A DNA stretch of 64,000 nucleotides from Candidatus Uhrbacteria bacterium (GTDB lineage Bacteria > Patescibacteriota > Patescibacteriia > UBA9934 > GWF2-40-263), in NCBI GenBank assembly GCA_016188495.1, contig JACPHU010000013.1, positions 5,498 through 69,497 of the forward strand. The letters run 5' to 3'. The notes under the pieces were generated by a model, which saw only the letters and a list, made by a program, of their open reading frames with translations, did no database searches and was not told the origin of the DNA. Made by a program: the position numbers and the translations under genes. Within the stretch, counting starts at the first letter, position 1. Each line of letters begins with the position of its first letter. Below are positions 10,565-55,148 of this stretch, piece after piece.

Positions 10565-13318
10565 ATGTCAAAGATTTTGAAGGTTCTTTTTGGGGACCCA
10601 AACAAGAAATTGCTTAACCAATTACAGAAAGAAGTTGAAAAAATAAATGCTTTTGAATCAAGCATTCAACCTCTTTCTGATGAAGCCCTAAAAGCAAAAA
10701 CACAGGAATTTAAGGTAAAACTTTCTCAAGGTGTTCTTTTGGACGACCTTCTTCATGAAGCGTTTGCTGTGGTACGCGAGACGGCTCGACGAACACTGGG
10801 GCAGCGCCATTATGATGTTCAGCTCATTGGGGGACTCGTGTTACATCGAGGTCAAATTGCTGAAATGCGTACAGGCGAAGGAAAAACATTAACTTCTACC
10901 TTGGCGTTATATACAAATGCCTTACGCGGACAAGGATGTCATCTTGTGACCGTAAACGACTATTTGGCCAGACGCGATGCGGTTTGGATGGGGCAAGTGT
11001 TTCATTTTCTTGGGCTCTCTGTCGCTTGCATTCAGCAAGATGGAGGGCTCTTGTATGACCCTTCTTTTAAACATAAAGAAGGCGGGGATGTTGAGCAAAA
11101 AGCAGATGAGGAACGTGATGAAACAGGGTCTTTTCATATTCGTGAAGATTATTTGCGTCCCTGCTCTCGTTCTGAGGCTTATGCCGCAGATATTACCTAC
11201 GGAACAAATAATCAATTCGGGTTTGATTATCTTCGTGACAACATGGCTCCTACGTTGGACCAGTGCGTAATGCGCGAACTACACTACGCGATTGTGGATG
11301 AAATCGATTCGATCTTGATTGATGAAGCGCGTACCCCTTTGATTATTTCTGCCGCGGCTGAGAAATCAAACGATCTTTACTATCGCTTTGCCCAAATCGT
11401 CAACGAACTCAACGAGAAAGAGCATTTTAATGTGGATGAAAAAATGCGAACCGCAACGTTGACCGAATCTGGGATCGAAAAAATTGAAAAAATGTTAGGC
11501 ATTGAAAATTTATACGCCATGGATCAAGGTCTCTATCAACGTTTTGCCGATACAGCTTTGCGCGCACGGGCAAACTATCAACGCGATGTCCATTACGTGG
11601 TTAAAAATGGAGAAGTGATTATCGTTGATGAATTTACCGGACGTTTAATGCCAGGTCGTCGATTTTCTGAAGGAATTCATCAAGCCATCGAAGCCAGAGA
11701 AGGCGTAGAGATAAAAAATGAAAGTCGAACCATGGCTACGATTACCTTCCAGAATTTATTTCGCATGTATCACAAATTGGGTGGAATGACAGGTACCGCT
11801 GCCACAGAAGCAGAGGAGTTTTCAAAAATTTATAATCTGGAAGTCGTAGAAATTCCAACCAACAAATCTGTGATCCGTGTGGATGCCCAAGATCGTGTTT
11901 ATAAAACAGAACTTGGTAAATTTTCCGCGCTTGTTAACGATATTCGAGAATATCAACAAAAAGGCCAGCCTGTATTGGTGGGAACAGTGAGTGTGGAAAA
12001 AAACGAACTTCTTTCCCAGTTGTTAACCAAGGCGGGGATTACTCACCAATTGCTCAACGCGAAGAACCATGTTCAAGAAGGGGAGATTATCGCACAGGCT
12101 GGACGCAAGGGGGCCGTTACCATTGCCACGAATATGGCAGGACGGGGAGTAGATATTAAGCTTGGAGGAAATCCTCCGGTCAAAGAAGAGGAAGACGAGG
12201 TAAAACGATTGGGGGGGCTTCATGTGATCGGAACTGAAAGACACGATTCACGCCGTATTGATAATCAGTTGCGGGGACGCTCCGGACGTCAAGGCGATCC
12301 TGGATATACGCAGTTCTATCTTTCTATGGAAGATGGATTGATGCGCATTTTCGGATCAGACCGTGCCAAAGGCATGATGGATCGATTAGGCATACCCGAC
12401 GACATGCCTATTGAAAATAGTTTTATTACTGGTTCTATTGAGAAAGCTCAAACGCGTGTGGAGGGCCATCATTTCGATGCACGTAAGCACCTGTTGGAAT
12501 ATGACGACGTGCTAAACAAACATCGCGAAGTGATTTACGCTCGTCGTCGAGAGATTTTAGAAACGTTTTCCAAAGAACCAGAAAAAATGCGAGACCGTAT
12601 TTTGGACGTGATTGAAGGTGAGATTGAACAGATTGTTCTTTTTCATTCTTCTGAAAATGGAACAGACGGAACGTGGAATCTTAAGGAGATTATTGAAACG
12701 GTTAATGCTATTGTCGCTTTGTCAGAAGAAGAAATGGCTGATTTTAAACAGATGGGTTTGACGATCAAACAAGACAAAGAGCACTTAGCACAGCTTCGTA
12801 CTCAAGTGATTGTAAAAATCATGGAAAGTATCCGAGCTCATTACGATGCTCTTTATGATGTATTTGAGGATCGTAAGAGTGTATATAACATTGAACGTGG
12901 AGTTCTTTTGCGGGCTATCGATATGCTTTGGGTAGATCACTTAGCAGCGATGGGAGCTCTTCGTACAGGCATTGGTTTGCAAGGATACGGACAACGCGAT
13001 CCATTGATTGAATACAAGAAAGAAGGCTTCAACATGTTTCAGCATTTGCTTGGATCGATTAACAACGAAGTCACCAACACCTTCTTTAAGTACGCCAAAC
13101 ATGCGGTGGACATGAAAGTTCAGGTTGATTTGGGCAAGTCCCTTTTTCAAAAAGCGGGTATTACCCTTCAAGGTCCAGCAAAGACCAGTAGTGGTGATAA
13201 GGAAAAATCCGTAACAATAACTACGGAACCTTCTCAATCAGACGAATCAAAAATTGGCCGTAACGATCCCTGTTTTTGTGGATCGGGAAAGAAGTATAAA
13301 AAGTGTCATGGGAAATAG
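10565..13318 (+). CDS. secA: Preprotein translocase ATPase SecA
   Basis: DEAD motor motifs, the HxxxGRxGRQGDPG region and a C-terminal zinc-binding CFCGSGKKYKKCHG. Confidence 0.95.
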   Translation: MSKILKVLFGDPNKKLLNQLQKEVEKINAFESSIQPLSDEALKAKTQEFKVKLSQGVLLDDLLHEAFAVVRETARRTLGQRHYDVQLIGGLVLHRGQIAEMRTGEGKTLTSTLALYTNALRGQGCHLVTVNDYLARRDAVWMGQVFHFLGLSVACIQQDGGLLYDPSFKHKEGGDVEQKADEERDETGSFHIREDYLRPCSRSEAYAADITYGTNNQFGFDYLRDNMAPTLDQCVMRELHYAIVDEIDSILIDEARTPLIISAAAEKSNDLYYRFAQIVNELNEKEHFNVDEKMRTATLTESGIEKIEKMLGIENLYAMDQGLYQRFADTALRARANYQRDVHYVVKNGEVIIVDEFTGRLMPGRRFSEGIHQAIEAREGVEIKNESRTMATITFQNLFRMYHKLGGMTGTAATEAEEFSKIYNLEVVEIPTNKSVIRVDAQDRVYKTELGKFSALVNDIREYQQKGQPVLVGTVSVEKNELLSQLLTKAGITHQLLNAKNHVQEGEIIAQAGRKGAVTIATNMAGRGVDIKLGGNPPVKEEEDEVKRLGGLHVIGTERHDSRRIDNQLRGRSGRQGDPGYTQFYLSMEDGLMRIFGSDRAKGMMDRLGIPDDMPIENSFITGSIEKAQTRVEGHHFDARKHLLEYDDVLNKHREVIYARRREILETFSKEPEKMRDRILDVIEGEIEQIVLFHSSENGTDGTWNLKEIIETVNAIVALSEEEMADFKQMGLTIKQDKEHLAQLRTQVIVKIMESIRAHYDALYDVFEDRKSVYNIERGVLLRAIDMLWVDHLAAMGALRTGIGLQGYGQRDPLIEYKKEGFNMFQHLLGSINNEVTNTFFKYAKHAVDMKVQVDLGKSLFQKAGITLQGPAKTSSGDKEKSVTITTEPSQSDESKIGRNDPCFCGSGKKYKKCHGK

Positions 13319-14636: not shown

Positions 14637-15260
14637 ATGTTCGAACACTCACGTGAAAATCATGAAATATCTCATCGTATTGATTGGAATACCGTTCTTA
14701 GACAATGGCAGGAGGGCGAGGAAAAACAATGGGAGCAACTTATTCGCGAACGCGGATTTTCTTCTTGGTGGGAGTGGCGTAAAAGTTATGTCAAAGAGTT
14801 AGATCTTGAACAACGTGAATGGCGTGAAGAGATAATAATGAAACCGCATGATGTCATTCCTGATCTGGTATTAGGGGGATTCCGTGGATGGAAGCAGTAC
14901 CGCCCTGCTGATAAGGACCTTGTTACGTTTAGAGAAATGGTTTCCCCTGTCGTTTCTGGAGAAGTTTCCTATGCCCAAACTTCTCGTGTGGACATGAGAA
15001 CAAATTCAAGAGTTATGAGTTTAGTTGGAAATCTTACGGATACCTCTCTTCTTGTTTTACGATCTTCTGATTTTTCTGTTGTTCTTGATGGAACACATCG
15101 TTGCGCGGCGACAGCTATCGAAGTCGTAGATACTTTTTTACAGCCTTCTTCGTTTGTTGCCCGATTGCGTACATGCCAATTTTCTGAATCAGAAAGAGAA
15201 TTACTCGAAGCCTTTGCTCGAGATCGTGAAATAGTGATTAAGAAAGAGAATAAAGCTTAA
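14637..15260 (+). CDS. Hypothetical protein with a Trp-rich N-terminus
   Basis: A 207-aa ORF in a same-strand run of genes. No recognised motif. Confidence 0.45.
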   Translation: MFEHSRENHEISHRIDWNTVLRQWQEGEEKQWEQLIRERGFSSWWEWRKSYVKELDLEQREWREEIIMKPHDVIPDLVLGGFRGWKQYRPADKDLVTFREMVSPVVSGEVSYAQTSRVDMRTNSRVMSLVGNLTDTSLLVLRSSDFSVVLDGTHRCAATAIEVVDTFLQPSSFVARLRTCQFSESERELLEAFARDREIVIKKENKA

Positions 15261-16122: not shown

Positions 16123-18180
16123 ATGCAAACCTGGAAATTAAAGAAGAAGGTTAAAAAAATAGAGAGAAAAACATGGAAAACAAGACTTGTTGCCGTGTTT
16201 CTTCTGGTCACAACCATTGCCATCGGTTTTTACGATTTTCCTGGAATCTGGAATCAAACAGGACAATATGTTCAGGCGAAAACAGGTTGGTTACCACCTA
16301 CTCTTACGGAAAAGTCATTTCGGTTAGGTCTTGATCTTCAAGGTGGAACGCACCTTGTCTATGAAGCCGATATGTCTGAAATTCCAGAAGAAGACCGTGT
16401 AGACGCTCTGCAGGGAGTTCGCGATGTGATTGAACGTCGAGTGAATGCGTTTGGTGTTTCAGAACCTGTTATTCAGACAACAACATCTGGAGGAACCTAT
16501 CGTCTTATCATAGATCTTGCTGGTGTGATGGACGTTTCACAAGCGATTACTCTTATTGGAGAAACTCCTGTATTGGAATTTAAAGAACCTGGACAGGAAG
16601 CCCAGCGTGATCCAACTCCAGAAGAGTTGAGTCAGCTTGAAACGGCTAATACGCAAGAACGAGCAAAGGCGCAGGAAGTTCTTACTCGAGCATTATCTGG
16701 AGAAGATTTTAATGCTCTTGTTTCAGAATTCAGTATTGATGAAAATAAAGAGGAGACTCAAGGAATCATTAAAGACATTACGGGAGATTCGTATTACAGC
16801 GAATATGCCGCATTAATCCAACAAAGAGGTGTTCAACCAGGACAACTCAACAGTAATTTGATTGAGGGGGATGACGGAATCAGTATTTTTAAATATACCG
16901 CTCCAGCAGAAGTGACAGAAATGTTGCTTTCTCACATCCTGATCTGTTTTGAAGGAAAGAAAGGGTGTGCCAGTCAAACACCGGCCTTGGACGCTTCTAT
17001 TCAAATAGGGAATCTTAAAGATCAAGCAACTCCGGAAAATTTTTCTGAATTGGCAAAAACCTATTCCACAGATCCGTCCGCTCTTTCTAACGGAGGGGAT
17101 CTTGGATGGGGAACCGCTACCGATTACGTTGCTTCTTTCAGTCTTGCAGCCGGAGCTCTTCCTGTGGGAGGAATTTCAGATGCTGTTGAGACAGAATACG
17201 GATATCACTTGATCTACAAAGCAGATCAGCGAACAGTGCCCGCCTACACGATTCAGCGTATTTTAATGCCTTTGACCGATATTTCAGATATCGTTCCTCC
17301 TCCTTCCGTTTGGGTCAATACGCAACTTTCTGGAAAAAATCTTGAACGTGCCGCTGTTGAATTTGATCCAAACTCAGGTCAACCCTATGTCGGTCTTACC
17401 TTTGATACAGAAGGAGGAGAACTTTTTGGAGCATTGACCGAGAGTCATGTAGGACAACCGATCGCGATCTTTTTAGATGGAGCCTCCATCTCAACTCCTC
17501 TTGTGCAGCAGGCTATTTATGGAGGACGTGCGGTGATTACAGGAGATTTTACCGTAGATGAAGCAAAGCTTCTTGCCCAACGTCTTAATGCCGGAGCTCT
17601 TCCTGTTCCTGTTGAGCTTTTATCTCAACAAACCGTTGGACCAACATTAGGGGCTATCTCTCTTGAAAAGAGTATTCATGCCGCTTTATTCGGATTTCTA
17701 TTGGTGGCTCTCTACATGATGATTGTTTATCGTCTACCAGGATTTATTTCTGTTGTGGCCTTAGTCTTGTTTGCCTTTCTAAACTTGTTGGCTTATCGCT
17801 TGTTTGGAGTGACGATTACTCTGGCTGGGATTGCTGGTCTGGTTCTTTCTTTGGGGGTAGCAGTGGATGCGAACGTTTTGATTATCGAACGGTTTAAAGA
17901 GGAATTTGCTTCTGGTCGAGATTTTCATTCATCTATCGATGAAGCATTTAAACGTGCATGGACGGCGATCAGAGATGGAAACATGACGACTCTTATTTCT
18001 TCGGTCATCTTGTATTGGTTTAGTTCCAGCTTTATTCGCGGTTTCGGTCTTACTCTTTCTTTGGGTGTCTTGCTGAGTATGTTTACCGCCATCATCGTAA
18101 CAAGAATTTATTTAACGACTGTTCTTGATTGGAAGGGTATTCGTAAACCATTTCTTTTTGGAATCAAAAAACGATCATAG
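16123..18180 (+). CDS. secD: Protein translocase subunit SecD with an inserted tandem parvulin (PpiC) PPIase-like region
   Basis: The SecD head and TM regions are present (LDLQGG, and a C-terminal 6-TM region with VDANVLIIER). Residues about 165-370 carry two parvulin-like modules. One reads SHILI...GGDLGW...GGISDAVETEYGYHLI. Confidence 0.85.
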   Translation: MQTWKLKKKVKKIERKTWKTRLVAVFLLVTTIAIGFYDFPGIWNQTGQYVQAKTGWLPPTLTEKSFRLGLDLQGGTHLVYEADMSEIPEEDRVDALQGVRDVIERRVNAFGVSEPVIQTTTSGGTYRLIIDLAGVMDVSQAITLIGETPVLEFKEPGQEAQRDPTPEELSQLETANTQERAKAQEVLTRALSGEDFNALVSEFSIDENKEETQGIIKDITGDSYYSEYAALIQQRGVQPGQLNSNLIEGDDGISIFKYTAPAEVTEMLLSHILICFEGKKGCASQTPALDASIQIGNLKDQATPENFSELAKTYSTDPSALSNGGDLGWGTATDYVASFSLAAGALPVGGISDAVETEYGYHLIYKADQRTVPAYTIQRILMPLTDISDIVPPPSVWVNTQLSGKNLERAAVEFDPNSGQPYVGLTFDTEGGELFGALTESHVGQPIAIFLDGASISTPLVQQAIYGGRAVITGDFTVDEAKLLAQRLNAGALPVPVELLSQQTVGPTLGAISLEKSIHAALFGFLLVALYMMIVYRLPGFISVVALVLFAFLNLLAYRLFGVTITLAGIAGLVLSLGVAVDANVLIIERFKEEFASGRDFHSSIDEAFKRAWTAIRDGNMTTLISSVILYWFSSSFIRGFGLTLSLGVLLSMFTAIIVTRIYLTTVLDWKGIRKPFLFGIKKRS

Positions 18181-18181
18181 T

Positions 18182-19072
18182 ATGAAGTTACACATCGTCG
18201 AACATCGAAATCGTTGGTTTCTTTTTTCCGGGGTTCTTATTTTAGGAAGTTTTTTAGCGCTTGGACTTTTTGGCTTGAAATTGGGTATTGATTTTACAGG
18301 AGGAAGTCTTATCGAAGTTCAAGCACAACAAGCGCTTAATTCAGAACAAATACGTTCTGAATTGGCAAATGGGGGATATAACGTCACAGTACAAATAACG
18401 GATAAGAACACTCTTCTTATCAGGACAAAAGATTTGAATAATGAGGAGCATGAAAAACTTCTTACCAGTCTTTCTGCCATTGTGGGTTCTGTAGACGAGC
18501 TGCGTTTTGATTCCATCGGTTCTGTCGTAGGGGGAGAATTGAGAAAAACAGCTGTAACGGGACTCATTTTAATTCTTGTTTTGATTGGATTGTATATTGC
18601 TTGGGCTTTTCGGAAAGTATCCGGACCGATCGCTTCCTGGAAATACGGAGTTTTGACCGTGTTAACAGCTTTTCATGACGTGATTGTTCCGTTGGGTGTT
18701 TTTGCCCTATTGGGTCACTTTATGGATTGGGAAATCGATATTACTTTTGTTGCAGCGATCCTCACCATTTTGGGTTATTCTATTAATGATACCGTTGTGG
18801 TATTTGATCGTACTCGAGAAAACTTAACGAAAAAAGTTGGAAATTCTTTTGAAGAAACTGTGGAATTAAGTATTGAACAAACGTTTGCTCGTTCTCTCAG
18901 TACGAGCATGACAACGCTGTTGGCTCTTTTCGCCATTTTTATTTTCGGAGGAGATACTACTAAACCTTTTGCTTTGGCTCTTATTATAGGAATTGCGGTA
19001 GGGGCCTATTCATCTATTTTCGTTGCGAGTCCTGCGTTGGTAGAGTGGGAATTGCGAAACAAAAAGAAATAA
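18182..19072 (+). CDS. secF: Protein translocase subunit SecF
   Basis: MKLHIVEHRNRWFLFSGVLIL, GIDFTGGSLIEV and the SecF 6-TM core. The start was trimmed to ATG 18182, right after the secD stop. Confidence 0.9.
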   Translation: MKLHIVEHRNRWFLFSGVLILGSFLALGLFGLKLGIDFTGGSLIEVQAQQALNSEQIRSELANGGYNVTVQITDKNTLLIRTKDLNNEEHEKLLTSLSAIVGSVDELRFDSIGSVVGGELRKTAVTGLILILVLIGLYIAWAFRKVSGPIASWKYGVLTVLTAFHDVIVPLGVFALLGHFMDWEIDITFVAAILTILGYSINDTVVVFDRTRENLTKKVGNSFEETVELSIEQTFARSLSTSMTTLLALFAIFIFGGDTTKPFALALIIGIAVGAYSSIFVASPALVEWELRNKKK

Positions 19073-19133: not shown

Positions 19134-20696
19134 ATGCTTTCACTTTTTGCTATTCCTATTGTAAGCCAGGCGACAGGGTTTGCCTCAGGAACTTCTTCTT
19201 ATTTTTTACAACCTCTGGATGCTATTCTTTTTGATATTCTGATTTGGTTTGGTTGGATTCCTATCGTGATGACGTTAGGTTGGGGTTTTACACAGATGTG
19301 GTTAGATTACCGACGAGGACTTTATTCTGCAAAGTTGAAGTATATTCTTTTGGCGGTCGATGTTCCGACAATGACAGAACAAACACCAAAAGCTCTCGAG
19401 AATTTTTTTGCGTCTATTTACGGAACCAAATCTTCTATTACATGGAAGGAAAAGTGGATTGGAGGAAAGTTACATCCGGTTTTTTCTTTCGAAATTATTT
19501 CGACAGAAGGGTATATTCGTTTTCTTATTCGTACACAGGCACGTTTTCGAGATGTGATGGAAGCCGGTATTTATGCTCATTATCCAGACGCAGAAATTTC
19601 TGAAGTGGAAGATTACGCCAAATCATTTCCTAACGAATTTCCAAATGATGAGTATGAAATGTGGGGTGGGGAAATGACGTTTGATAAGCCTTCCATGTAC
19701 CCAATCCGAACCTATATTGATTTTGAGGATCGGATGACGCAAGAAATCAAAGATCCTTTAGGACTCACGTTGGAACAGTTGGCTAAAATGCGGCCAGGAG
19801 AACATTTTTGGATTCAAATTTTGGTTCAGCCTTCCAGTAACGATTGGGCAAAGGCGAGTGTCAAGCATGTTCGTAAAATTTACGGAGATGAAGATGCTCC
19901 TAAAAAGAGTCTTATTGCTTCAACATTTGAATCTGTTATCGCTTGGCCGACCGGTTTATTGAATGAAACGTTAGGAATCGATTTAAGCGGTTTATTGTCA
20001 TCCGGAACTCAGGTAAAGGAAGTAGATCCTTGGAAGACGTTTAAAATTACTCTTCCGCAAAAAGATGAAGCCGAGGCTATTTTGCGCAAAGCAACAAAAG
20101 TCGGTTATGGAGTGAAACTTCGTATTCTGTATGTTGCGCGAAAAAGCGTTTTTCAAAAAGTCGAACGAACAGGAATGGTGAAGGGAATTTTAAATCAGTA
20201 CAGCCATTTGAATTTTAATAAATTCGCTCTGTATATTCCTCAGGTTCCTAAGGATGATTATTTTTGGATGCGTTGGGAATATACCCAAAAACAACACCGC
20301 TTAATGACCGGTTATCAGAAACGAAGCTGGGGAATCGGTGCAAATCCTATCTGGTTGAATGTTGAAGAACTGGCAACTCTTTGGCACTTCCCAACCATTA
20401 CGATGAAAGCTCCGCTTGTGAAGAAGAGTGAGTCTAAACGCGGAGAGCCACCTGTTGGACTTCCTATCACCTTTTTAGAAGACACACTTCCAGGATTTAT
20501 TCCTCCTAAGACAGAGGAACAAAAACAGAATTATTTTCCTGAATTTGAAGAAGAATCGGAGAAAAAATTAGAACCAGAAAGCTCTTCAGAATCGACAGAT
20601 CCGTTTGAAGATCTTGTTCAACCAGTTCTTCCTCGTCAAACGTTTAAAAAATCTTTAGAAGATGATGATGTTGTTCCTCCGAATCTTCCTGTTTAG
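19134..20696 (+). CDS. Membrane-anchored hypothetical protein (520 aa). It has N-terminal TM helices, a large soluble domain and an acidic C-terminus.
   Basis: TM segments occur at about 1-60 aa. The motif NVEELATLWHFP is present. The 3' end is 29 nt upstream of the following VirD4-like ATPase gene. Confidence 0.6.
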   Translation: MLSLFAIPIVSQATGFASGTSSYFLQPLDAILFDILIWFGWIPIVMTLGWGFTQMWLDYRRGLYSAKLKYILLAVDVPTMTEQTPKALENFFASIYGTKSSITWKEKWIGGKLHPVFSFEIISTEGYIRFLIRTQARFRDVMEAGIYAHYPDAEISEVEDYAKSFPNEFPNDEYEMWGGEMTFDKPSMYPIRTYIDFEDRMTQEIKDPLGLTLEQLAKMRPGEHFWIQILVQPSSNDWAKASVKHVRKIYGDEDAPKKSLIASTFESVIAWPTGLLNETLGIDLSGLLSSGTQVKEVDPWKTFKITLPQKDEAEAILRKATKVGYGVKLRILYVARKSVFQKVERTGMVKGILNQYSHLNFNKFALYIPQVPKDDYFWMRWEYTQKQHRLMTGYQKRSWGIGANPIWLNVEELATLWHFPTITMKAPLVKKSESKRGEPPVGLPITFLEDTLPGFIPPKTEEQKQNYFPEFEEESEKKLEPESSSESTDPFEDLVQPVLPRQTFKKSLEDDDVVPPNLPV

Positions 20697-20725
20697 AGAT
20701 CTTTCGTTCATCTTTCAACAATCAC

Positions 20726-22885
20726 ATGTCTTACAATCACGACCATGAAAACGAAGTAAATTACTTCGCCAAGACCAATTTCCGAAATCAAATGACAAAA
20801 TTCGGAATTAAGACGGATGATCGTCGCCGACATGTCTATGTGATCGGAAAGACAGGTATGGGAAAAACGACCCTCCTGGAGAATTTTATTTTATCTGATA
20901 TTTACGCTGGGCACGGATGCTGTTATGTAGATCCTCATGGAGACACTGCTGAAAAATTGATCAATTACATTCCAAGTTGGAGACTCAATGACGTGGTGTA
21001 TTTCAATCCCGCGGACATGGATTATCCTGTTGGATTTAATATTCTTGAAGCGGTAAGCGAACGTCATAAACATCTTGTCGCCTCAGGAATGATGGGGGTC
21101 TTTCAAAAAATATGGGAAAACATGTGGTCTTCACGCATGGAGTATATTTTAAATAACACCATTCTTGCTCTCTTGGATAATCCTGGACAGACACTGCTTG
21201 GAATTAACCGAATGCTTTCTGACGCTGATTTTCGAAAACGTATTATCGGAAACGTCAAAGATCCTGTGGTTCGTCAGTTTTGGTTAAAGGAGTTTGCTTC
21301 TTATAACGATAAGTATGCCCAGGAAGCCGTAGCTCCTATTCAAAATAAGATCGGACAATTCCTTTCAGCGACCGTTATTAGAAATATCGTTGCCCAAGTC
21401 AAGTCTTCTATTAATGTTCGGGAAATCATGGATAGCGAGAAAATTTTTATTATCAATCTTTCGAAAGGACGTATCGGTGAAGATAATTCTCGGTTATTGG
21501 GAGGACTTCTTATTACGAAAATTCAGTTATCAGCGATGGAACGTGTTGATACGCCAGAAAAAGAACGAAAAGATTTTTACTTATACGTCGACGAATTTCA
21601 AAATTTTGCCGTTGAATCTTTCGCGAGTATTTTATCTGAGGCTCGTAAGTACCGTTTGTGTCTAACCATGGCGCATCAATATATTGCCCAATTAACAGAA
21701 GAGGTGCGCGATGCGGTGTTTGGAAACGTTGGTACTATCATTACGTTTCGTGTTGGTTCCCCCGACGCTGTTTTTATGGAGGCAGAGTTCATGCCACGGT
21801 TTACTCCAGAAGACATTATTAATCTTCCAAAGTTTAACGTTTATCTCAAACTGCTTATTGAAGGGGTTACGAGTCAGCCTTTTTCTGCCATGACGCTTTC
21901 GCCTATTGCTCAAGTGACCCATTCCGAAGAAAAAGTCATCAAGATTTCTCGTGAGCGTTATGCCAAACCTAGAGCTGAAATCGAAGAGAAGATTCTGCAA
22001 TGGAGCGGTATGGAGAATACGGATATGGAGACGCTTTTGAAAGAGGCTGAACAGAAGAAAAAAGACCAGAAAGAAAGTAAGAAACCACGATTTGAATATA
22101 AGTGTTCTCGTTGCGGTAAAGATGTTGTATTACCTGTTGAACTCGATCGATCTCGACCTATTTATTGTGATGACTGTATTGCTATTGTTCGGGATGAGCG
22201 CAAAACTGGTAAAAAACCTTTTGTTAAACCACCTTTTCCTCCTAAGCCTTCGGAAGGACAATCGGTTGAAAAGCTTCCTGAGGAGCCTTCTATCACGTTA
22301 AGCACGCTGCGAAAGCCTTCTATTTCGGCTCCGGTTTCGGTTCCTAAATCCGTCGTCGTGCCTTCAAGAACACCTGCACCTGCAACACCTGCACCTGCAA
22401 CACCTGCACCTGCAACACCTGCACCTGCAACACCTGCACCTGCAACACCTGCACCTGCAACACCTGCACCTGCAACACCTGCACCTGCAACACCTGCACC
22501 TGCACAACGTTCTTCAGTGGCAAGTCATTCATACACGTGTTCTGATTGTACACGCACGTTTAGCGCCGGAGTGAAACTTGATCCTAGTCGTTCGTTGTAC
22601 TGCCAAGAGTGTTTAGAAAAAATTCGCGCGAAGCGTAAAGAACATCCTGTTGAAAAAAAACAAGAAGCCAATCACCCAAGGCTTGTTACCAGTTCGGTGG
22701 TCCAAAGTAGCTTATCGCAACAGACCGATGACGTTACAAAAAAGAAACGTAAACGTAAAAGAAAAAATAAACAGACAGAGACTGTGCCTTCTGTTCATAC
22801 AGAGTCGATGTCTCCTAAAAAACCTGAACCTCCTCAAGAAAAATTGGGAACGCTAAAAACAGGACAAACCGTTCATTTTGATTAA
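20726..22885 (+). CDS. TraD/VirD4/FtsK-HerA-superfamily P-loop ATPase (type IV secretion coupling-protein-like). It has a C-terminal double zinc ribbon and a (TPAPA)9 linker.
   Basis: Walker A is VIGKTGMGKTT. DPHGD follows. Walker B is LYVDEFQNF. LTMAHQ is also present. The C-terminus has CSRCGK...RPIYCDDC and CSDCTR...RSLYCQEC, both YacG-like CxxC...YCxxC ribbons, separated by nine TPAPA repeats. Confidence 0.7.
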   Translation: MSYNHDHENEVNYFAKTNFRNQMTKFGIKTDDRRRHVYVIGKTGMGKTTLLENFILSDIYAGHGCCYVDPHGDTAEKLINYIPSWRLNDVVYFNPADMDYPVGFNILEAVSERHKHLVASGMMGVFQKIWENMWSSRMEYILNNTILALLDNPGQTLLGINRMLSDADFRKRIIGNVKDPVVRQFWLKEFASYNDKYAQEAVAPIQNKIGQFLSATVIRNIVAQVKSSINVREIMDSEKIFIINLSKGRIGEDNSRLLGGLLITKIQLSAMERVDTPEKERKDFYLYVDEFQNFAVESFASILSEARKYRLCLTMAHQYIAQLTEEVRDAVFGNVGTIITFRVGSPDAVFMEAEFMPRFTPEDIINLPKFNVYLKLLIEGVTSQPFSAMTLSPIAQVTHSEEKVIKISRERYAKPRAEIEEKILQWSGMENTDMETLLKEAEQKKKDQKESKKPRFEYKCSRCGKDVVLPVELDRSRPIYCDDCIAIVRDERKTGKKPFVKPPFPPKPSEGQSVEKLPEEPSITLSTLRKPSISAPVSVPKSVVVPSRTPAPATPAPATPAPATPAPATPAPATPAPATPAPATPAPATPAPAQRSSVASHSYTCSDCTRTFSAGVKLDPSRSLYCQECLEKIRAKRKEHPVEKKQEANHPRLVTSSVVQSSLSQQTDDVTKKKRKRKRKNKQTETVPSVHTESMSPKKPEPPQEKLGTLKTGQTVHFD
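22370..22504 (+). repeat. Perfect 9 x 15-nt tandem repeat (ACACCTGCACCTGCA) encoding (TPAPA)9
   Basis: It is read in frame inside the ATPase gene. It also creates the spurious antisense ORF at 22344-22553. Confidence 0.9.
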
Positions 22886-27163: not shown

Positions 27164-27778
27164 TCAATAAGTCAATGCATTCGTCCATTGGTAAAAGTCT
27201 GCAGAATCTCCCGCCATCAAATTGACATCAAGGGACTCGTGGGAGACAGGAGGTGTTTCGTGGATTGAATAAGGAGCCGACTGTGTGAAACGTTCCTTTG
27301 TTTGGCGTAAATGCGTTTCTACAGAATTCATAAGCGGGATCACATGGATTGTTTCAAGAAAATCGTAATTGATGAAGGAAGCCATTGCGTCAGAAAGGAC
27401 ATGCTCTGTGTTGTTTGTTTTAATTATTAAAGGAGTTTGTGCGGATGTTTTTGCCAAGATCCTTCCTTTGATGAGTCGGATGATCAGTTCGTCTTTGTAT
27501 AGTCGTTCTAATTCGATAGAAGTATTTTTTGAAAGCCAGATGATTGTCTGAGCTTGATCTGCTTGTGCAAGCTCTTCACCTATGTTTAGTTGAATAAAAC
27601 CCTCCACTGTTTCAACTAAAGATCCTCGCTGTAAACCTTCTCCAAATCCATACCCAGCGTCTTCACCAGCTCCAGCGGTGATACGAACGGGGAGTTCTTT
27701 AGGAAGTGAAAAACGTTGGACAATGAGTAATCCAACGACAAAGCAGAATAATATGACTGTAAGGATTTTGAGAGACAT
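27164..27778 (-). CDS. Hypothetical N-terminally membrane-anchored protein
   Basis: A signal or anchor sequence MSLKILTVILFCFVVGLLIV. No recognised catalytic motif. Confidence 0.45.
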   Translation of the reverse strand: MSLKILTVILFCFVVGLLIVQRFSLPKELPVRITAGAGEDAGYGFGEGLQRGSLVETVEGFIQLNIGEELAQADQAQTIIWLSKNTSIELERLYKDELIIRLIKGRILAKTSAQTPLIIKTNNTEHVLSDAMASFINYDFLETIHVIPLMNSVETHLRQTKERFTQSAPYSIHETPPVSHESLDVNLMAGDSADFYQWTNALTY

Positions 27779-27818
27779 GTTAAAATTTTAGCATCTAATT
27801 ACCTACGATTCTAGCAGT

Positions 27819-28085
27819 ATGCTTTATTTTTACTACGGAGAAGAATGTCCGCATTGTCACCACATGATGCCTCTTATTGATAAATTGATTGAAGAAGGAA
27901 AAGAAATCCAAAAAAAGGAAACCTGGCATAGTGAAGAAAATGCTCAACATTTTGAAAAAGCAGATAACGGTAAATGCGGTGGAGTCCCATTTTTTCTCAA
28001 TACGGATTCAGGCCAATCGATTTGTGGCGCTACCACAGAGGAACGTGTGAGAGCATGGGCGAACGGAGAAACACTTAGCCAATAG
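27819..28085 (+). CDS. Thioredoxin/glutaredoxin-fold small protein (CPHC active site)
   Basis: YYGEECPHCHHMMP and GGVPFF are typical of thioredoxin-fold thiol-disulfide oxidoreductases. Confidence 0.6.
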   Translation: MLYFYYGEECPHCHHMMPLIDKLIEEGKEIQKKETWHSEENAQHFEKADNGKCGGVPFFLNTDSGQSICGATTEERVRAWANGETLSQ

Positions 28086-28088
28086 TGT

Positions 28089-29054
28089 ATGAAACTCTTG
28101 CGGAGACAGATTGCTCTAGGATTCTTTAGTCTCTTGTTCCTAGGTTCGGGCTGTCTTTCTCCAGATGTTTCAAATCTGACGCCAGAGCAAGCGGCTTCCA
28201 ACCTTTCTTTTTCTGTTGGGGATACCTTTGTTTTAAGGCCAACTGTGTTGGGATTGGGTGGTTCCGTTGTTGAATGGTCGGGTGCGGATGAGCAGATACG
28301 TACGGTCACTCTGACCGATTGGATTCCCAATCAGAAAGTACATGTAACGTGGGAGAGTTTAGTGACGGTTGAAACGTCTGAGTCTCAAGTAGCAAGAGAA
28401 GCGTATGATGCTCAGTATTCTCAATCTCCTGTGGGAGTTGAAATTCCTGAGGCTCCTGAACCCGTTTATGAACAACGTTCTCAAACGGGAACCATTGCTT
28501 CACAATCATTAGCAACGGCTACCACACTAAAACTTGCCCAACAGTGGCCTGTCGGTGATGGGGGAATGGTCGAAGAATCCCTTGTATGGCTTTCTCCTTC
28601 CCAATATAGTGAACTTATTAATACCCGATCGACAAAAGTGAGTTTGGGTTTATTTGATGAATCTTTAACCAGAATTGAAGACACTACCGCGCAAGCAAAG
28701 TCTTTTGTTGATCGAATCAGTGGTTTCTTCTCATTGTTTACGGGTGATGATTCGTCTGTGAATAATGAGTCAACAGTACCTACAATAAAAAATGCTACAA
28801 CGATAGAAGCGAATCCTTCTTGGGGAGTTTATTCTTTAGACGTGGATGGTGTGAGAACAAAGGTAAGAGTGGTTGAAGCCAAGAATTCCTTTGCCAGTTA
28901 TAAAATCCTCGCGAATCCAGAGAATCCTATTATTTTAGAAATTCAACTCACTCCTCTTTCTCAGGGAAACCTTAAATTTTTGAGTAAAGAAGGACTAGCA
29001 AAAGGATTCAGCGGATATGAAATTTCACAGATCAATCTAAAAACGGGCGAATAG
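28089..29054 (+). CDS. Putative lipoprotein, hypothetical
   Basis: A signal peptide with the lipobox LGSGC. The rest is Ser/Thr-rich and unrecognised. Confidence 0.55.
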   Translation: MKLLRRQIALGFFSLLFLGSGCLSPDVSNLTPEQAASNLSFSVGDTFVLRPTVLGLGGSVVEWSGADEQIRTVTLTDWIPNQKVHVTWESLVTVETSESQVAREAYDAQYSQSPVGVEIPEAPEPVYEQRSQTGTIASQSLATATTLKLAQQWPVGDGGMVEESLVWLSPSQYSELINTRSTKVSLGLFDESLTRIEDTTAQAKSFVDRISGFFSLFTGDDSSVNNESTVPTIKNATTIEANPSWGVYSLDVDGVRTKVRVVEAKNSFASYKILANPENPIILEIQLTPLSQGNLKFLSKEGLAKGFSGYEISQINLKTGE

Positions 29055-33860: not shown

Positions 33861-34418
33861 ATGGAGATACCTGTTGTCGTACAACACAGACATGTTCATC
33901 TTTGTGAGCATGATGCTCAAATTCTTTTTGGGACGGATAACCTCACCTCATCACGGATGATTGACCAAAGAGATCAGTACATCTTTTCGCGCAAGGTGAG
34001 TCTTCATGGATCCAAAGGTTCTTTCGAAGATGTGTGTGTCATCGGTCCTGTACGAGATCAGACGCAAGTGGAAATTTCTTCCAGTGATGCCTATGCGATC
34101 GGACTCCTTGCGCCATTGCGGGTTTCAGGTGATTTAGAGCGATCCGGTACCGTTCTTCTTAAGACAGATTTAGGAGAAATTCGTGCCAAATCAAGTACAA
34201 TTATCCCTATGCGTCATTTGCATCTCCCGCTTTCTCTTGCAGAGGAATTAGGACTTTCTCATCATGATACCGTCTCTCTTACCCTAAAAGAGTATCCGGA
34301 GATCGTCTTTGACCATGTCGTTATCAGAATTCATCCAGCCTTTCTTCCTGCCTTTCATCTGACTAAAGATGAGGCCGCATCAGAGTGGATACAGACAGGT
34401 GATCACGTTATTTTATGA
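33861..34418 (+). CDS. pduL: Phosphate propanoyltransferase / phosphotransacylase PduL
   Basis: QHRHVHL...LFG, LHGSKGSFEDVCVIGPVRDQTQVEIS and a second RHLHL half-site, as in PduL. Confidence 0.75.
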   Translation: MEIPVVVQHRHVHLCEHDAQILFGTDNLTSSRMIDQRDQYIFSRKVSLHGSKGSFEDVCVIGPVRDQTQVEISSSDAYAIGLLAPLRVSGDLERSGTVLLKTDLGEIRAKSSTIIPMRHLHLPLSLAEELGLSHHDTVSLTLKEYPEIVFDHVVIRIHPAFLPAFHLTKDEAASEWIQTGDHVIL

Positions 34419-35629
34419 AACGTTATTTCTTTTTTTCTCTCCTCGTTTTCTTTTTTCCTGTTGTGGCTTACGCTGCTGTGGATTTAGGCATAAGTCAGGG
34501 GGATATTCATTTTTCAAAAGAAACCTTTGTTGCAGGTGATGCGATTCGTATTTATGCAACCGTTCATAACGTTGGAGATCAAGATGTTTCCGGGTATGTG
34601 AGTTTTTACCAGGGTGCATCTTTGATCGGACAACCTCAGGCCATTTCGTTATTAAAAAATGGAAACCCTGAGGAAGTTTATGTAGATTTTATTGTTCCTG
34701 TTTCTGAATTCAATATCATGGCGCAAGTCGGGGGTACAGATCCCGAAGATAGTAATTCATCCAATAACACGGCGATCACCGGAAAAATTACGCCTATCAT
34801 CGATTCCGACCATGACGGCATAGATGAAAAAAATGATAACTGTCCTACGATGGCTAACGAAACACAGATTGATTCCGATAAGGATGGCCAGGGAGACGCT
34901 TGCGATCAGGACGATGACGGAGACGGCTTATCTGATGAAGTAGAAAAAGAACTTGGAACAGATACGACGCAAGTCGATTCCGATGGGGATGGAGTAAACG
35001 ATCCTCAGGATGCTTATCCTACAGATAAAGAAAAGACGGTTATTGAAACTCCACAGGAAGAAACAAAAGAAACGATTGATTCTTCAACGGTTTCCGATAC
35101 AAAAGAGACATTTCAACAAATTGTCACGAAAGTTGCTCAAACTATTCGTGAAACTTCAGATACCCAGTCTGATCCGTCGTCCTCTCTTGATGATCAAGAA
35201 CATGAAGAAACTTTATTAGACACAGATACGCTTTCTAAAAATGAGGTCACGATAAACGAAGTAAGCATTTCTCCCAATACGGTTTTTCGATCTCGGAGAG
35301 AATCCTGGAATACCTTTACATTTGAAGTCCTCGCTCCGCCGAACGATTCCACGATTTATGTTTGGGATTTTGGCGATGGAGTAAATTCATCAAAGTCATT
35401 TGTTAGCCATACGTACAATTCTCCGGGAGCTTTTACTGTTTCTTTAACCATGACCGATGCTTCAGGCGTTGTTTCTACGGATTCAACAACGGTTTTTGTC
35501 CCATTTTTTAGCCTTTCAAATCGTTTAGTGGTCGTTTCACTTGGGCTTTTGAGTCTTTTATTAATAATCGCTCTCGTTTTCTTCTTTTCTTTAGGAAGAA
35601 AACGTTTTAAAGAATCGTCGCATGTTTAG
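34415..35629 (+). CDS. Secreted protein with thrombospondin type-3-like Ca-binding Asp repeats and a PKD domain. Has a C-terminal TM anchor.
   Basis: A signal peptide. Repeated DSDxDGxxDxxD motifs. WDFGDG...HTY...GAFTVSLTMTD fits the PKD pattern. A hydrophobic C-terminus. Confidence 0.65.
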   Translation: MKRYFFFSLLVFFFPVVAYAAVDLGISQGDIHFSKETFVAGDAIRIYATVHNVGDQDVSGYVSFYQGASLIGQPQAISLLKNGNPEEVYVDFIVPVSEFNIMAQVGGTDPEDSNSSNNTAITGKITPIIDSDHDGIDEKNDNCPTMANETQIDSDKDGQGDACDQDDDGDGLSDEVEKELGTDTTQVDSDGDGVNDPQDAYPTDKEKTVIETPQEETKETIDSSTVSDTKETFQQIVTKVAQTIRETSDTQSDPSSSLDDQEHEETLLDTDTLSKNEVTINEVSISPNTVFRSRRESWNTFTFEVLAPPNDSTIYVWDFGDGVNSSKSFVSHTYNSPGAFTVSLTMTDASGVVSTDSTTVFVPFFSLSNRLVVVSLGLLSLLLIIALVFFFSLGRKRFKESSHV

Positions 35630-53726: not shown

Positions 53727-55148
53727 TTAACGTGAAGCAATAATGATCTCTTGCGCATCATCTTGAGGTTCTGTTTCCAAAAGAAGAAGATCTCCCAAAG
53801 GATGCTCTAAGACGGCACGTTCTGTTGTCCAGACAACCTGACTCCAATCCCATCCAAAACTATTGAAGGTCAATTCATTGGCGATAGGATGCCTTACCCC
53901 CTCAGAGATGACAAAAATATCACGCGAACCTTGTGCGGCAATAAGGGTTCCATCTTGGAAACGAACAGGTTCTGCACGTTCAAATGCCTCCAACTCTTCT
54001 GGAGCTACAACGGTTATTGAGTCATGAGGGAAACGGTTTTTTAATATTTCACGTGAAAGAATCGGATATTTTTTTCCATCCTTCACCGAGAAGACTCCTC
54101 CTGTAGATTTGTCTTGAAGCAAGACTCCTGCAGGATTTGCAGAAGAAACAGTCAACGGTTCACCTTCTGTATAAGGAACCAGATCCTCCCATGTCACATC
54201 CGTGATTTCTTCTGAGGAAAATCCAAGAGACCTGAGAGCTTGCTGTGAGGCAAACCCCCGTCTTGTGTCGTCTACAATCAGATAGACGGTTCCTCCTGGA
54301 GATCGCAGTAGAGAATAATTTGGAAAGCTAATCGCAAGCCCTATCGGATATTTTTCAAGCGTAGAAGGACTCACAGAAATAACCGTTTCAGGATTGAACC
54401 TCGAATAAAACGCTGTACGCGAGGTAATCGGTCTGCGTGTATTGTGTTGAATCAACCAGATACCTCCCGTTTCTTTGTCTTGAAGAAGACTGCCTGTTAA
54501 ATAATCGTAGTTAAACCAGCGGTTCCAAATACGGGCGAAATTTTCATTTCCATGAAGATGGGGAGTGTAGGTATAAAGAGAAGCGGTCGCATTGTTAGCC
54601 GGAATAACCGTTGTTCCGTCGATGATAGACTCAATTCCTGGACCTATTCCTGTTTGGGTGTAACCTCTTGATTCGAGATCGGATAAATAAGAATCGCGAA
54701 TACGTTGTCCGGCATAATATAATTGATTTCCAAAACCTTTGTATTTTTGAATGATAGGATCTGATTTGGAACAGCTATCGCATACGGCATAGCCCATCGC
54801 CCAATCGAGTTGATTTTGGGTTGGATCAGGATCTTCGACCAGACTTTGTTCACGCTGAAGAAGAACCAAGAGGAAACGTGGACTTAATTCAAATGTCTGA
54901 GACACATCCCAAATGATTTTTGCGGCACTTTGTTCAATTCCGTCTTTGTCTGTTGTGCTATAAGAAGCGAGGCTTCCGCGAGTTAAAAAGCCTTGTATGT
55001 CCTCAAGTGACATACTCGAAACATCCAACATTTCTGTATCTGAAATAAGATATTCCGGATCCACAGCAAAATTTTCCATTGCGTAAGCTGTTGCCACGGG
55101 TTCTCCCGCAAAAATAAACAAAAAGAAAATAAAAAACAGTCGTTTCAT
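53727..55148 (-). CDS. Secreted hypothetical protein with internal repeats
   Basis: A signal peptide. There are two copies of an LLQDKxTGG[IV][WF]...[RK]xPI module. Confidence 0.5.
   Translation of the reverse strand: MKRLFFIFFLFIFAGEPVATAYAMENFAVDPEYLISDTEMLDVSSMSLEDIQGFLTRGSLASYSTTDKDGIEQSAAKIIWDVSQTFELSPRFLLVLLQREQSLVEDPDPTQNQLDWAMGYAVCDSCSKSDPIIQKYKGFGNQLYYAGQRIRDSYLSDLESRGYTQTGIGPGIESIIDGTTVIPANNATASLYTYTPHLHGNENFARIWNRWFNYDYLTGSLLQDKETGGIWLIQHNTRRPITSRTAFYSRFNPETVISVSPSTLEKYPIGLAISFPNYSLLRSPGGTVYLIVDDTRRGFASQQALRSLGFSSEEITDVTWEDLVPYTEGEPLTVSSANPAGVLLQDKSTGGVFSVKDGKKYPILSREILKNRFPHDSITVVAPEELEAFERAEPVRFQDGTLIAAQGSRDIFVISEGVRHPIANELTFNSFGWDWSQVVWTTERAVLEHPLGDLLLLETEPQDDAQEIIIASR

Follow-up and report, generated by a model that had tools for sequence, protein, structure and literature searches.

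What is the task of an ATPase related to the coupling proteins of type IV secretion systems (T4SS) when it is encoded among housekeeping genes and its membrane anchor is found on another protein? The question is raised by two adjacent genes in Candidatus Uhrbacteria bacterium (GenBank assembly GCA_016188495.1, contig JACPHU010000013.1, positions 5,498 to 69,497 of the forward strand), in a stretch of 64,000 nucleotides that is called the window here and whose own numbering is used throughout. The upstream gene product (protein 1, P1) is a membrane-anchored protein with the domain DUF8128, and the downstream gene product (protein 2, P2) is an ATPase of the VirD4/TrwB type. The two proteins probably make up one machine: a membrane-tethered hexameric translocation motor, produced in Patescibacteria by fission of a gene for DUF8128 joined to an ATPase of the type IV coupling protein (T4CP) kind, and with a tail that recruits the substrate. 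The features of the two genes are given below together with the confidence of the AlphaFold models (predicted local distance difference test, pLDDT).

19134..20696, + strand: P1 gene (open reading frame of 520 aa), DUF8128 (PF26449) protein, putative membrane-anchored N-terminal module of the split ATPase
19212..19283, + strand: single transmembrane helix, predicted N-out/C-in (P1 aa 27-50, from hydropathy)
19341..20423, + strand: DUF8128 globular domain, predicted to be cytoplasmic (P1 aa ~70-430; pLDDT mostly >90)
20367..20393, + strand: invariant ELATLWHFP motif at the end of DUF8128 (P1 aa 412-420)
20424..20693, + strand: disordered C-terminal tail of P1 (aa 431-520; pLDDT <50)
20676-20693, + strand: PPNLPV peptide at the P1 terminus, putative tether to P2 (P515, L518 and P519 near-invariant)
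20726..22885, + strand: P2 gene (open reading frame of 719 aa), soluble VirD4/TrwB-type ATPase with zinc-ribbon tail
20726..22015, + strand: ATPase core (P2 aa 1-430)
20846-20869, + strand: Walker A, GKTGMGKT (P2 aa 41-48)
21584-21607, + strand: Walker B, YVDEFQNF (P2 aa 287-294)

The ATPase and its membrane partner

The initial annotation of this locus gave the coordinates and lengths of both open reading frames (ORFs) exactly, and all the motifs that it quoted are present in P1 and P2. Apart from the Walker motifs these include DPHGD (residues 69-73) and MAHQ (315-318) in P2. Among 66 homologs no variation occurs in Walker A, Walker B or the AHQ motif, and judged by its motifs P2 would be a catalytically intact P-loop motor of the VirD4/TrwB type. 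A database protein identical to P2 carries the NCBI name 'type IV secretion system DNA-binding domain-containing protein'.

The proposed relationship to TraD, VirD4 and TrwB is borne out by profiles and by fold. Three Pfam models of this class score over their gathering cut-offs: PF10412 (TrwB_AAD_bind) with 44.5 bits against 20.5 and an E-value of 1.3e-11 over residues 27-343, PF12696 (TraG-D_C) with 25.7 against 22, and PF02534 (T4SS-DNA_transf) with 24.4 against 20.1. Two further families had been put forward at the outset, of which the HerA family PF01935 (DUF87) stays below its cut-off (16.4 bits against 23.2) and AAA_10 is not among the Pfam matches listed. P2 is not an ordinary FtsK/SpoIIIE translocase either, as PF01580 reaches 15.5 bits against a cut-off of 24 and covers residues 29-60, the P-loop, only. 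The NCBIfam equivalogs are far under cut-off (conju_CD1115 42.5 against 250, SXT_TraD 39.4 against 366, TraD_Ftype 16.3 against 521), and so is the VirB4 model TIGR00929 with 15 bits against 643. When the P2 model was compared with the PDB using Foldseek, the top seven matches were Cagβ/VirD4 (8dol), TrwB (1e9r) and DotL (6sz9) with E-values of 1e-4 to 1e-3; VirB4 was reached only at about 0.15, and neither FtsK nor HerA was among the matches. In the model, eight helices at residues ~112-236 form an all-alpha insertion between the Walker A and Walker B strands, a block that appears to correspond to the all-alpha domain of TrwB. The motor is thus of the coupling-protein type, with the difference that the ATPase chain has no transmembrane domain and the only transmembrane helix of the pair sits on P1.

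Hydropathy gives P1 one hydrophobic segment (27-50) and P2 none, in agreement with the N-terminal anchor that had been proposed. The description of P1 as a membrane stalk is right as regards the single helix; the protein is more than a stalk, having a predicted cytoplasmic DUF8128 domain of about 360 residues. Its AlphaFold model starts with a long helix (28-67) and continues with a globular domain of alpha/beta type, and beyond residue ~430 the chain is a disordered tail; pLDDT is above 90 across most of residues 40-420. The match to PF26449 is precomputed on a database protein identical to P1 (P0121) and on nearly all listed homologs; this family is newer than the Pfam copy used for the direct scan, which gave P1 no match. 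No mention of DUF8128 or PF26449 was found in the literature searched. An N-out/C-in orientation, with DUF8128 in the cytoplasm, is inferred by the positive-inside rule from R59, R60, K67 and K69, which follow the helix. Alignment of 70 homologs shows 66 invariant columns in P1, among them E412, A414, W417, H418, F419 and P420 of the motif initially quoted as ATLWHFP (414-420). In and just after the transmembrane helix G40, W41, I42, P43, I44, W50, G51 and W56 are near-invariant, and the conservation inside the helix suggests a specific intramembrane partner, not a passive anchor.

The closest folds of P1 lie elsewhere than those of P2. The P1 model finds TrwK/VirB4 chains from the T4SS of R388 in all of its top 13 PDB matches, with E-values of 3e-4 to 3e-3 and a Foldseek probability of about 1 at a TM-score of only about 0.3. 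In the viral structure library BFVD the model finds the fused protein gp156 of Bacillus jumbo phage G (5e-16) and gp155 of the same phage (1e-6), which is a VirB4-type ATPase by Pfam (P-loop_TraG, AAA_10). Alignment with hhalign of a DUF8128 profile against gp155 and two ORFs of a patescibacterial T4SS cluster (L086, see below) gave a probability below 1%. Because of this missing signal homology with the N-terminal domain of VirB4 is unproven, and the modelled likeness is a weak structural lead.

The origin of the pair becomes apparent when it is compared with single-chain homologs. Fused proteins of 725-995 aa with DUF8128 and TrwB_AAD_bind are common in Bacillus phages and in Patescibacteria (Berkelbacteria, Falkowbacteria, Saccharibacteria and Gottesmanbacteria), as found in a search with gp156. 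Both P1 and P2 match one 824-position family, PHROG 5156, P1 at positions 53-287 and the P2 core at 405-808 (5e-62). They are also collinear with the fused patescibacterial protein P0335: P1 71-472 aligns to its residues 6-326, and P2 6-414 to its residues 311-722 with 47% identity. The split point falls in the linker, where in P0335 some ten residues separate PANLPI from the ATPase domain that follows it and where P1 terminates in PPNLPV; P0335 also keeps the other motif of P1, as ELASLWHPP. The collinearity marks the pair as the product of a true gene fission, and the idea of a split coupling-type protein, present from the start, holds. A sequencing frameshift as the cause was ruled out by the occurrence of the split in 72 loci and by the conserved tail and terminus that P1 has of its own.

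Neighbour-joining places the split ATPases together in a single clade that contains no other sequences. At the median, pairs of split ATPases share 67% identity and pairs of fused ones 44%, a contrast in rate that is indicative only since the two samples were gathered differently. The split form was found in none of the IMG/VR viral contigs in a pattern scan.

The pair resembles known T4CPs (VirD4, TrwB, TraD, Cagβ, DotL) in the P-loop nucleotide-binding domain with its all-alpha insertion, in the Pfam models and nearest folds, and in the long C-terminal extension of P2, which is placed like the tails of TraD and DotL. It differs from them in that the anchor is provided in trans by a protein with one transmembrane helix and the P2 chain has none, in the DUF8128 domain of ~360 aa that canonical T4CPs lack, in the zinc ribbons of the tail, in the low equivalog scores, and in that the window holds no relaxase or mating-pair formation (MPF) neighbour. 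With VirB4 (TrwK of R388) it shares the succession of an N-terminal domain and a TrwB-like ATPase domain, as well as the best PDB matches of the DUF8128 model. The motor is however T4CP-like, TM-scores are about 0.3, the VirB4 hidden Markov models (HMMs) are unmatched and there is no similarity at the level of sequence profiles.

The C-terminal tail of the ATPase

The part of P2 that follows the ATPase is about 290 aa long and not about 250 aa as first estimated. It contains these features:

22103..22177, + strand: zinc ribbon 1, CxxC-x17-CxxC, followed by a basic helix (P2 aa 460-484; pLDDT 86-90)
22369..22504, + strand: (TPAPA)9 linker, a perfect 15-bp tandem repeat of 9.1 copies with 100% match (TRF)
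22538..22612, + strand: zinc ribbon 2, CxxC-x17-CxxC (P2 aa 605-629; pLDDT 91-96)
22739..22765, + strand: basic run KKKRKRKRK (P2 aa 672-680)
22844..22882, + strand: conserved C-terminal peptide LGTLKTGQTVHFD, putative partner-docking motif (P2 aa 707-719)

Both ribbons have exactly the pattern CxxC-x17-CxxC, with 13 residues before RxxY where the initial annotation had counted 10 to 12. The spacing of 17 defines TIGR04272/PF23477, and P2 scores 30.3 bits with PF23477 (zf_Tbcl_2; cut-off 27) in two stretches and a borderline 35.5 bits against 36 with TIGR04272. Ribbon 1 keeps each of its four cysteines, with little or no variation, across the 66 homologs. This conservation, like that of the catalytic motifs and of P1, shows that the features did not arise by chance. 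By their sequence the ribbons are CxxC-x17-CxxC domains and are predicted to bind zinc. The kinship with YacG and with TraR/DksA that had been suggested for them was not recovered, as neither PF03884 nor zf-dskA_traR (PF01258) is among the families listed at E <= 1; two further matches outside that listing have E-values above 0.4. The C4 finger of TraR/DksA shares the spacing of the cysteines. Small stand-alone proteins of Methanosarcina mazei with the same cysteine spacing and a match to the same HMM bind zinc experimentally, although their function is unknown (PMC12704099); here the domain is instead appended once or twice to a large ATPase.

Two ribbons and a TPAPA spacer are not general features of the family. 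Complete orthologs have one ribbon in 49 of 65 cases, two in 7 and none in 9; the second ribbon occurs only in close Uhrbacteria relatives, which are these seven species loci and most of the top 30 matches. A ribbon was found in 1 of 120 matches to the fused query (P0343, whose Pfam record is without DUF8128). The TPAPA array is present as described earlier, and so is the basic run. The array was not found in the 29 closest relatives, for which reason it appears to be private to this genome, a recent slippage-type expansion in a variable disordered linker. An assembly effect is a conceivable alternative to such an expansion.

The remaining parts of the tail are more widely kept. Residues 671-710 of P2 have a net charge of +9, and the majority consensus of the orthologs at the basic run is KRKRxRKKK. 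In the C-terminal peptide G708, G713 and F718 are near-invariant, and most orthologs, ribbon-less ones among them, end in the pattern G-T-L-K-x-G-Q-x-I-K-F-D/E; a variant ends in FPW. The persistence of the peptide in ribbon-less orthologs suggests a docking motif for some partner. The C-terminal tails of TraD and DotL bind substrate or adaptor.

Distribution and gene neighbourhood

When one genome per GTDB species was scanned, split-type DUF8128 relatives were found in at least 586 species, and the locus counts given here are from the best 80 loci. All titles that name a lineage are patescibacterial, and many others are generic ('bacterium', 'uncultured bacterium'); the label 'uncultured Gammaproteobacteria' is taken to be a placeholder. 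By an exhaustive search DUF8128 proteins fall into about 1,870 clusters when grouped at 50% identity, of which the best 150 are all stand-alone proteins. An ATPase gene was found in 73 loci, and in 72 of these it comes right after DUF8128. In the exception (L048) the two are 7.3 kb apart, and one further locus (L081) has no ATPase gene within 5.6 kb. Identity across lineages is 60-91% in the ATPase core, 42-72% in SecD and 34-67% in DUF8128. The pair is therefore co-inherited as a slowly evolving unit of the chromosomal core, and the earlier view that it is not a mobile element agrees with the housekeeping genes of the window and with the synteny across 80 species.

The position between secDF and uppP was confirmed by Pfam. 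The association with secDF is widespread and yet incomplete, since of the 80 loci 36 have secF directly upstream and a further 23 have it at a distance of a few kb, but in 21 it is missing from the available flank; P1 and P2 are intact as a pair in these 21 loci. Clustering of all neighbouring ORFs at the 80 loci gave no recurrent partner beyond those described here. In about 22 of the 80 loci, the more distant ones (L050-L082, for example L066:8695-9795), a gene of ~370-400 aa with Sigma70_r4 and HARE-HTH domains is the nearest upstream neighbour of DUF8128. Where secF is present this gene lies between the two, and where secF is missing it adjoins DUF8128 all the same; the window does not have it. 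The encoded protein may serve the pair as a DNA-binding partner or regulate it.

The following neighbours and other ORFs of the window were recorded:

10565-13318, same strand as secD: secA with C-terminal SEC-C zinc motif
16123-18180, + strand: secD with inserted parvulin peptidyl-prolyl isomerase domain (by Pfam), upstream neighbour
18182-19072, + strand: secF (by Pfam), upstream neighbour of P1
563-3501, - strand: first of four ranges that together hold seven ORFs with no Pfam match
14637-15260: second of these four ranges
27164-29054: third of these four ranges
53727-55148: fourth of these four ranges

The genes flanking the pair encode SecD, SecF, UppP/BacA, an HD-domain protein and MnmA, by Pfam. 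The gaps are 61 bp between secF and P1, 29 bp between P1 and P2 and 2 bp between P2 and uppP, all on one strand. No terminator-like site was found between secF, P1, P2 and uppP; in the promoter and terminator scan as a whole sites were no more frequent than in shuffled sequence, so that an operon is suggested by the spacing of the genes only. The gene secA lies 2.8 kb upstream of secD, and secA, secD and secF are within 9 kb preceding the ATPase pair. The parvulin (PPIC rotamase) domain occupies SecD residues ~263-369, ahead of the P1 head subdomain of that protein, and the layout is the same in an ortholog (L087); with this insertion the periplasmic domain of SecDF would contain a foldase.

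Housekeeping genes in the 64-kb window are folD, glyA, murC, murB, secA, secDF, uppP, mnmA, era and murJ. It also contains alaS, rpoA, a polysaccharide cluster, fmt, priA, clpB, gltX and alr. GC content is even along the window, in which no tRNA genes or Rfam families were found. For about seven of the ORFs scanned, of 204-473 aa, Pfam gave nothing at thresholds of E <= 1e-3 or 1e-5. The ORF at 34415-35629, which adjoins murJ, has PKD and thrombospondin type 3 repeat domains and probably encodes a surface or adhesion protein.

The fused relatives have more varied neighbours. Two of them (L084, L085) sit among housekeeping genes, and the gene of P0335 (L086) is divergent beside a PrgI/VirB4 cluster near dnaA. 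This T4SS cluster (L086:4963-9872, - strand) lies near dnaA/dnaN on a patescibacterial contig of 996 kb, and its VirB4 is represented by two adjacent ORFs of 231 and 387 aa, both AAA_10/P-loop_TraG, which could be a frameshift, an assembly error or a genuine split. In phage G (L001:3196-7338) the VirB4-type gp155 adjoins the fused DUF8128 and T4CP-like gp156. In phage SPO1 (L002:2774-8284) the fused gp27.4 adjoins the Replic_Relax protein gp27.3, and an actin-like partition protein, gp27.9, is found ~1 kb upstream. By their gene content these sets appear to be conjugation-like modules in lytic Bacillus phages. The phage proteins gp156 and gp27.4 (PHROG 5156) have the DUF8128 and ATPase modules in common with P1 and P2, with 20-28% identity in the ATPase. 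They differ in being fused and phage-borne, in having neither an N-terminal transmembrane helix nor a zinc ribbon, and in their place beside VirB4-type or Replic_Relax genes. The wider family of DUF8128 and T4CP thus shows recurrent links to conjugation-type modules.

Channel, substrate and rival explanations

The ATPase class itself is already known, as it has been annotated and counted among the orphan coupling-protein homologues. Quinonero-Coronel et al. 2025 (PMC12102498), in the passages considered here, report 5,713 VirD4-like T4CP homologues in 2,918 of 3,035 Patescibacteria genomes, with 148 of them near virB4, and conclude that exaptation 'cannot be ruled out'. P2 belongs to this group. 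Its members are chromosomal according to these passages, number about two in each genome, seldom lie near virB4 and are suspected to have been exapted. They are treated there as one HMM-defined class. The present comparisons indicate instead two lineages, a split one that evolves slowly and a fused one that evolves faster, which fits the number of about two copies per genome given in those passages. The same passages and those considered from a T4SS review of 2025 mention neither DUF8128 nor a split, and the linkage to secDF, the ribbons and the homologs in phages are likewise missing from them. New are the two-gene architecture, a DUF8128 partner whose fold is weakly VirB4-like, a split clade that evolves slowly and bears zinc-ribbon tails, the behaviour of the pair as core genes and the phage relatives.

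The favoured tethered motor would be a split form of the DUF8128-T4CP ATPase, the coupling-protein homologue characteristic of Patescibacteria. In it P1 would keep P2 at the cytoplasmic membrane by means of two elements, the region of ELATLWHFP and the peptide PPNLPV on the tail, and these would take the place of the covalent linker of the fused proteins. P2 would form a hexameric ring by analogy with TrwB. Its disordered tail, made up of ribbons, basic helices and runs and the terminal peptide, might act as a recruitment arm for substrate or adaptor in the manner of TraD and DotL. Driven by ATP hydrolysis, a polymer would be fed toward a channel in the membrane, and nucleic acid or nucleoprotein is the most plausible polymer. 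The first choice as channel would be the chromosomal MPF-FATA-like T4SS that is encoded elsewhere in most Patescibacteria, and it is favoured because of the family-level associations with conjugation-type machinery. The split lineage may alternatively have been exapted to a channel independent of the T4SS.

Several observations weigh against a tethered motor of this kind, or against its partnership with the T4SS. As first noted, no VirB4, pilin or relaxase family was found among the scanned ORFs of the window, nor were VirB6 or integrase families, several small ORFs being outside the scan. T4SS-like families were not recognised in the 30 most recurrent neighbour clusters of the 80 loci, of which only some clusters were identified. 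The passages of PMC12102498 report VirB4 in 2,417 genomes, or 80%, fewer than the 96% that have a T4CP homologue, and state that the T4CP homologue of Southlakia was not essential whereas the T4SS genes were. The confidence of the P2 model is moderate, with a mean pLDDT of 63.5, and the likeness of DUF8128 to the VirB4 N-terminal domain comes from Foldseek at a TM-score of about 0.3, with no support from profiles. The ribbon tail cannot be indispensable, because it is confined to the split lineage and missing in 9 of 65 orthologs.

A serious rival, although a doubtful one, is a motor for uptake or export of nucleic acid that does not depend on the T4SS and moves host RNA or DNA across the cytoplasmic membrane through ComEC or another channel, the ribbons and basic tail gripping the polymer. 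The initial annotation had likewise considered a motor for uptake in an episymbiont. It is a serious rival because the split lineage is independent of virB4, more ubiquitous and equipped with a tail of its own. The near-universal T4CP homologues, wider than VirB4 and rarely near virB4 according to the passages of PMC12102498, would be explained by it, as would the slow, housekeeping-like evolution of the split clade, the zinc-ribbon and basic tail specific to that lineage and the Sigma70_r4 and HARE-HTH gene directly upstream in about 22 loci. Uptake of host RNA, by a mechanism still unresolved, is reported for a cultivated patescibacterium (preprint 10.64898/2026.06.21.733656), which lends this explanation some plausibility but is context and not evidence on this locus. 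However, no competence gene is adjacent in the window scan or in the neighbour clusters of the 80 loci, ribbon-less orthologs exist, known T4CPs push substrates outward, and ComEC is dispensable in Southlakia (reviewed in PMC12857230). A more specific proposal, that the split pair is a hexameric motor at the cytoplasmic membrane which acquires host nucleic acid, with ribbon and basic tails capturing RNA or DNA that arrives by the T4SS pilus or another conduit and with import as its direction, is speculative and rather unlikely. As a secondary part of that proposal, the family could preserve an intermediate between VirB4 and the coupling proteins.

The other explanations have less in their favour. 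It is improbable that the pair is a Sec accessory, a motor working with SecDF and SecA on protein or membrane-protein substrates. Such a role would explain the linkage to secDF, that is, secF directly upstream or within a few kb in 59 of the 80 loci, the tight one-strand spacing from secF to uppP and secA 6 kb upstream in the window. Against it stand the 21 loci in which the pair is intact and the available flank has no secF, the presence of another gene between secF and P1 in many loci, and the possibility that gene order in these small genomes just changes slowly. T4CP-type ATPases are not known as partners of Sec. An FtsK-like pump for the chromosome or other DNA at division is very improbable: in its favour are the membrane tether of an ATPase from the FtsK-HerA superfamily, the place of the gene in the chromosomal core and a tail that may bind DNA, but FtsK_SpoIIIE is under its cut-off and restricted to the P-loop, the fold matches of P2 include no FtsK, FtsK_gamma is not among the Pfam matches listed and there is no multi-pass N-terminal domain. 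There is hardly any likelihood left for a T4CP of a conjugative or integrative element or for a component of anti-phage defence (like mad8 of MADS, or HerA). The NCBI name of the ATPase and a PADLOC match to mad8 (2.2e-18, 64.9 bits) point that way, but GC content is even along the window, its scanned ORFs include no VirB4, relaxase or integrase, a tRNA boundary is lacking, synteny at this position extends over dozens of species, and the pattern scan of viral contigs did not turn up the split form. The mobile-element T4CP was rejected on the housekeeping context and the conserved synteny and is effectively refuted. MADS is an eight-gene mad operon with a methyltransferase, and it was dismissed since the mad8 match is generic and stands alone, the remaining genes of the operon are absent and the neighbours are secDF, uppP, the HD-domain gene and mnmA.

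The Patescibacteria constitute a large share of bacterial diversity and depend on their hosts for nucleotides and lipids, and the passage of macromolecules across their membranes is an open question. In the only species that is genetically tractable the patescibacterial T4SS is essential. The proposed tethered motor is a concrete candidate for a transport component, near-universal and with a motor core more conserved than SecD. It supplies a dedicated membrane partner with DUF8128 and a lineage-specific zinc-ribbon tail as a putative recruitment arm. The division of the orphan T4CP homologues, until now lumped together, into split and fused forms and their link to genes of Bacillus jumbo and SPO1-like phages should sharpen the annotation of this family.

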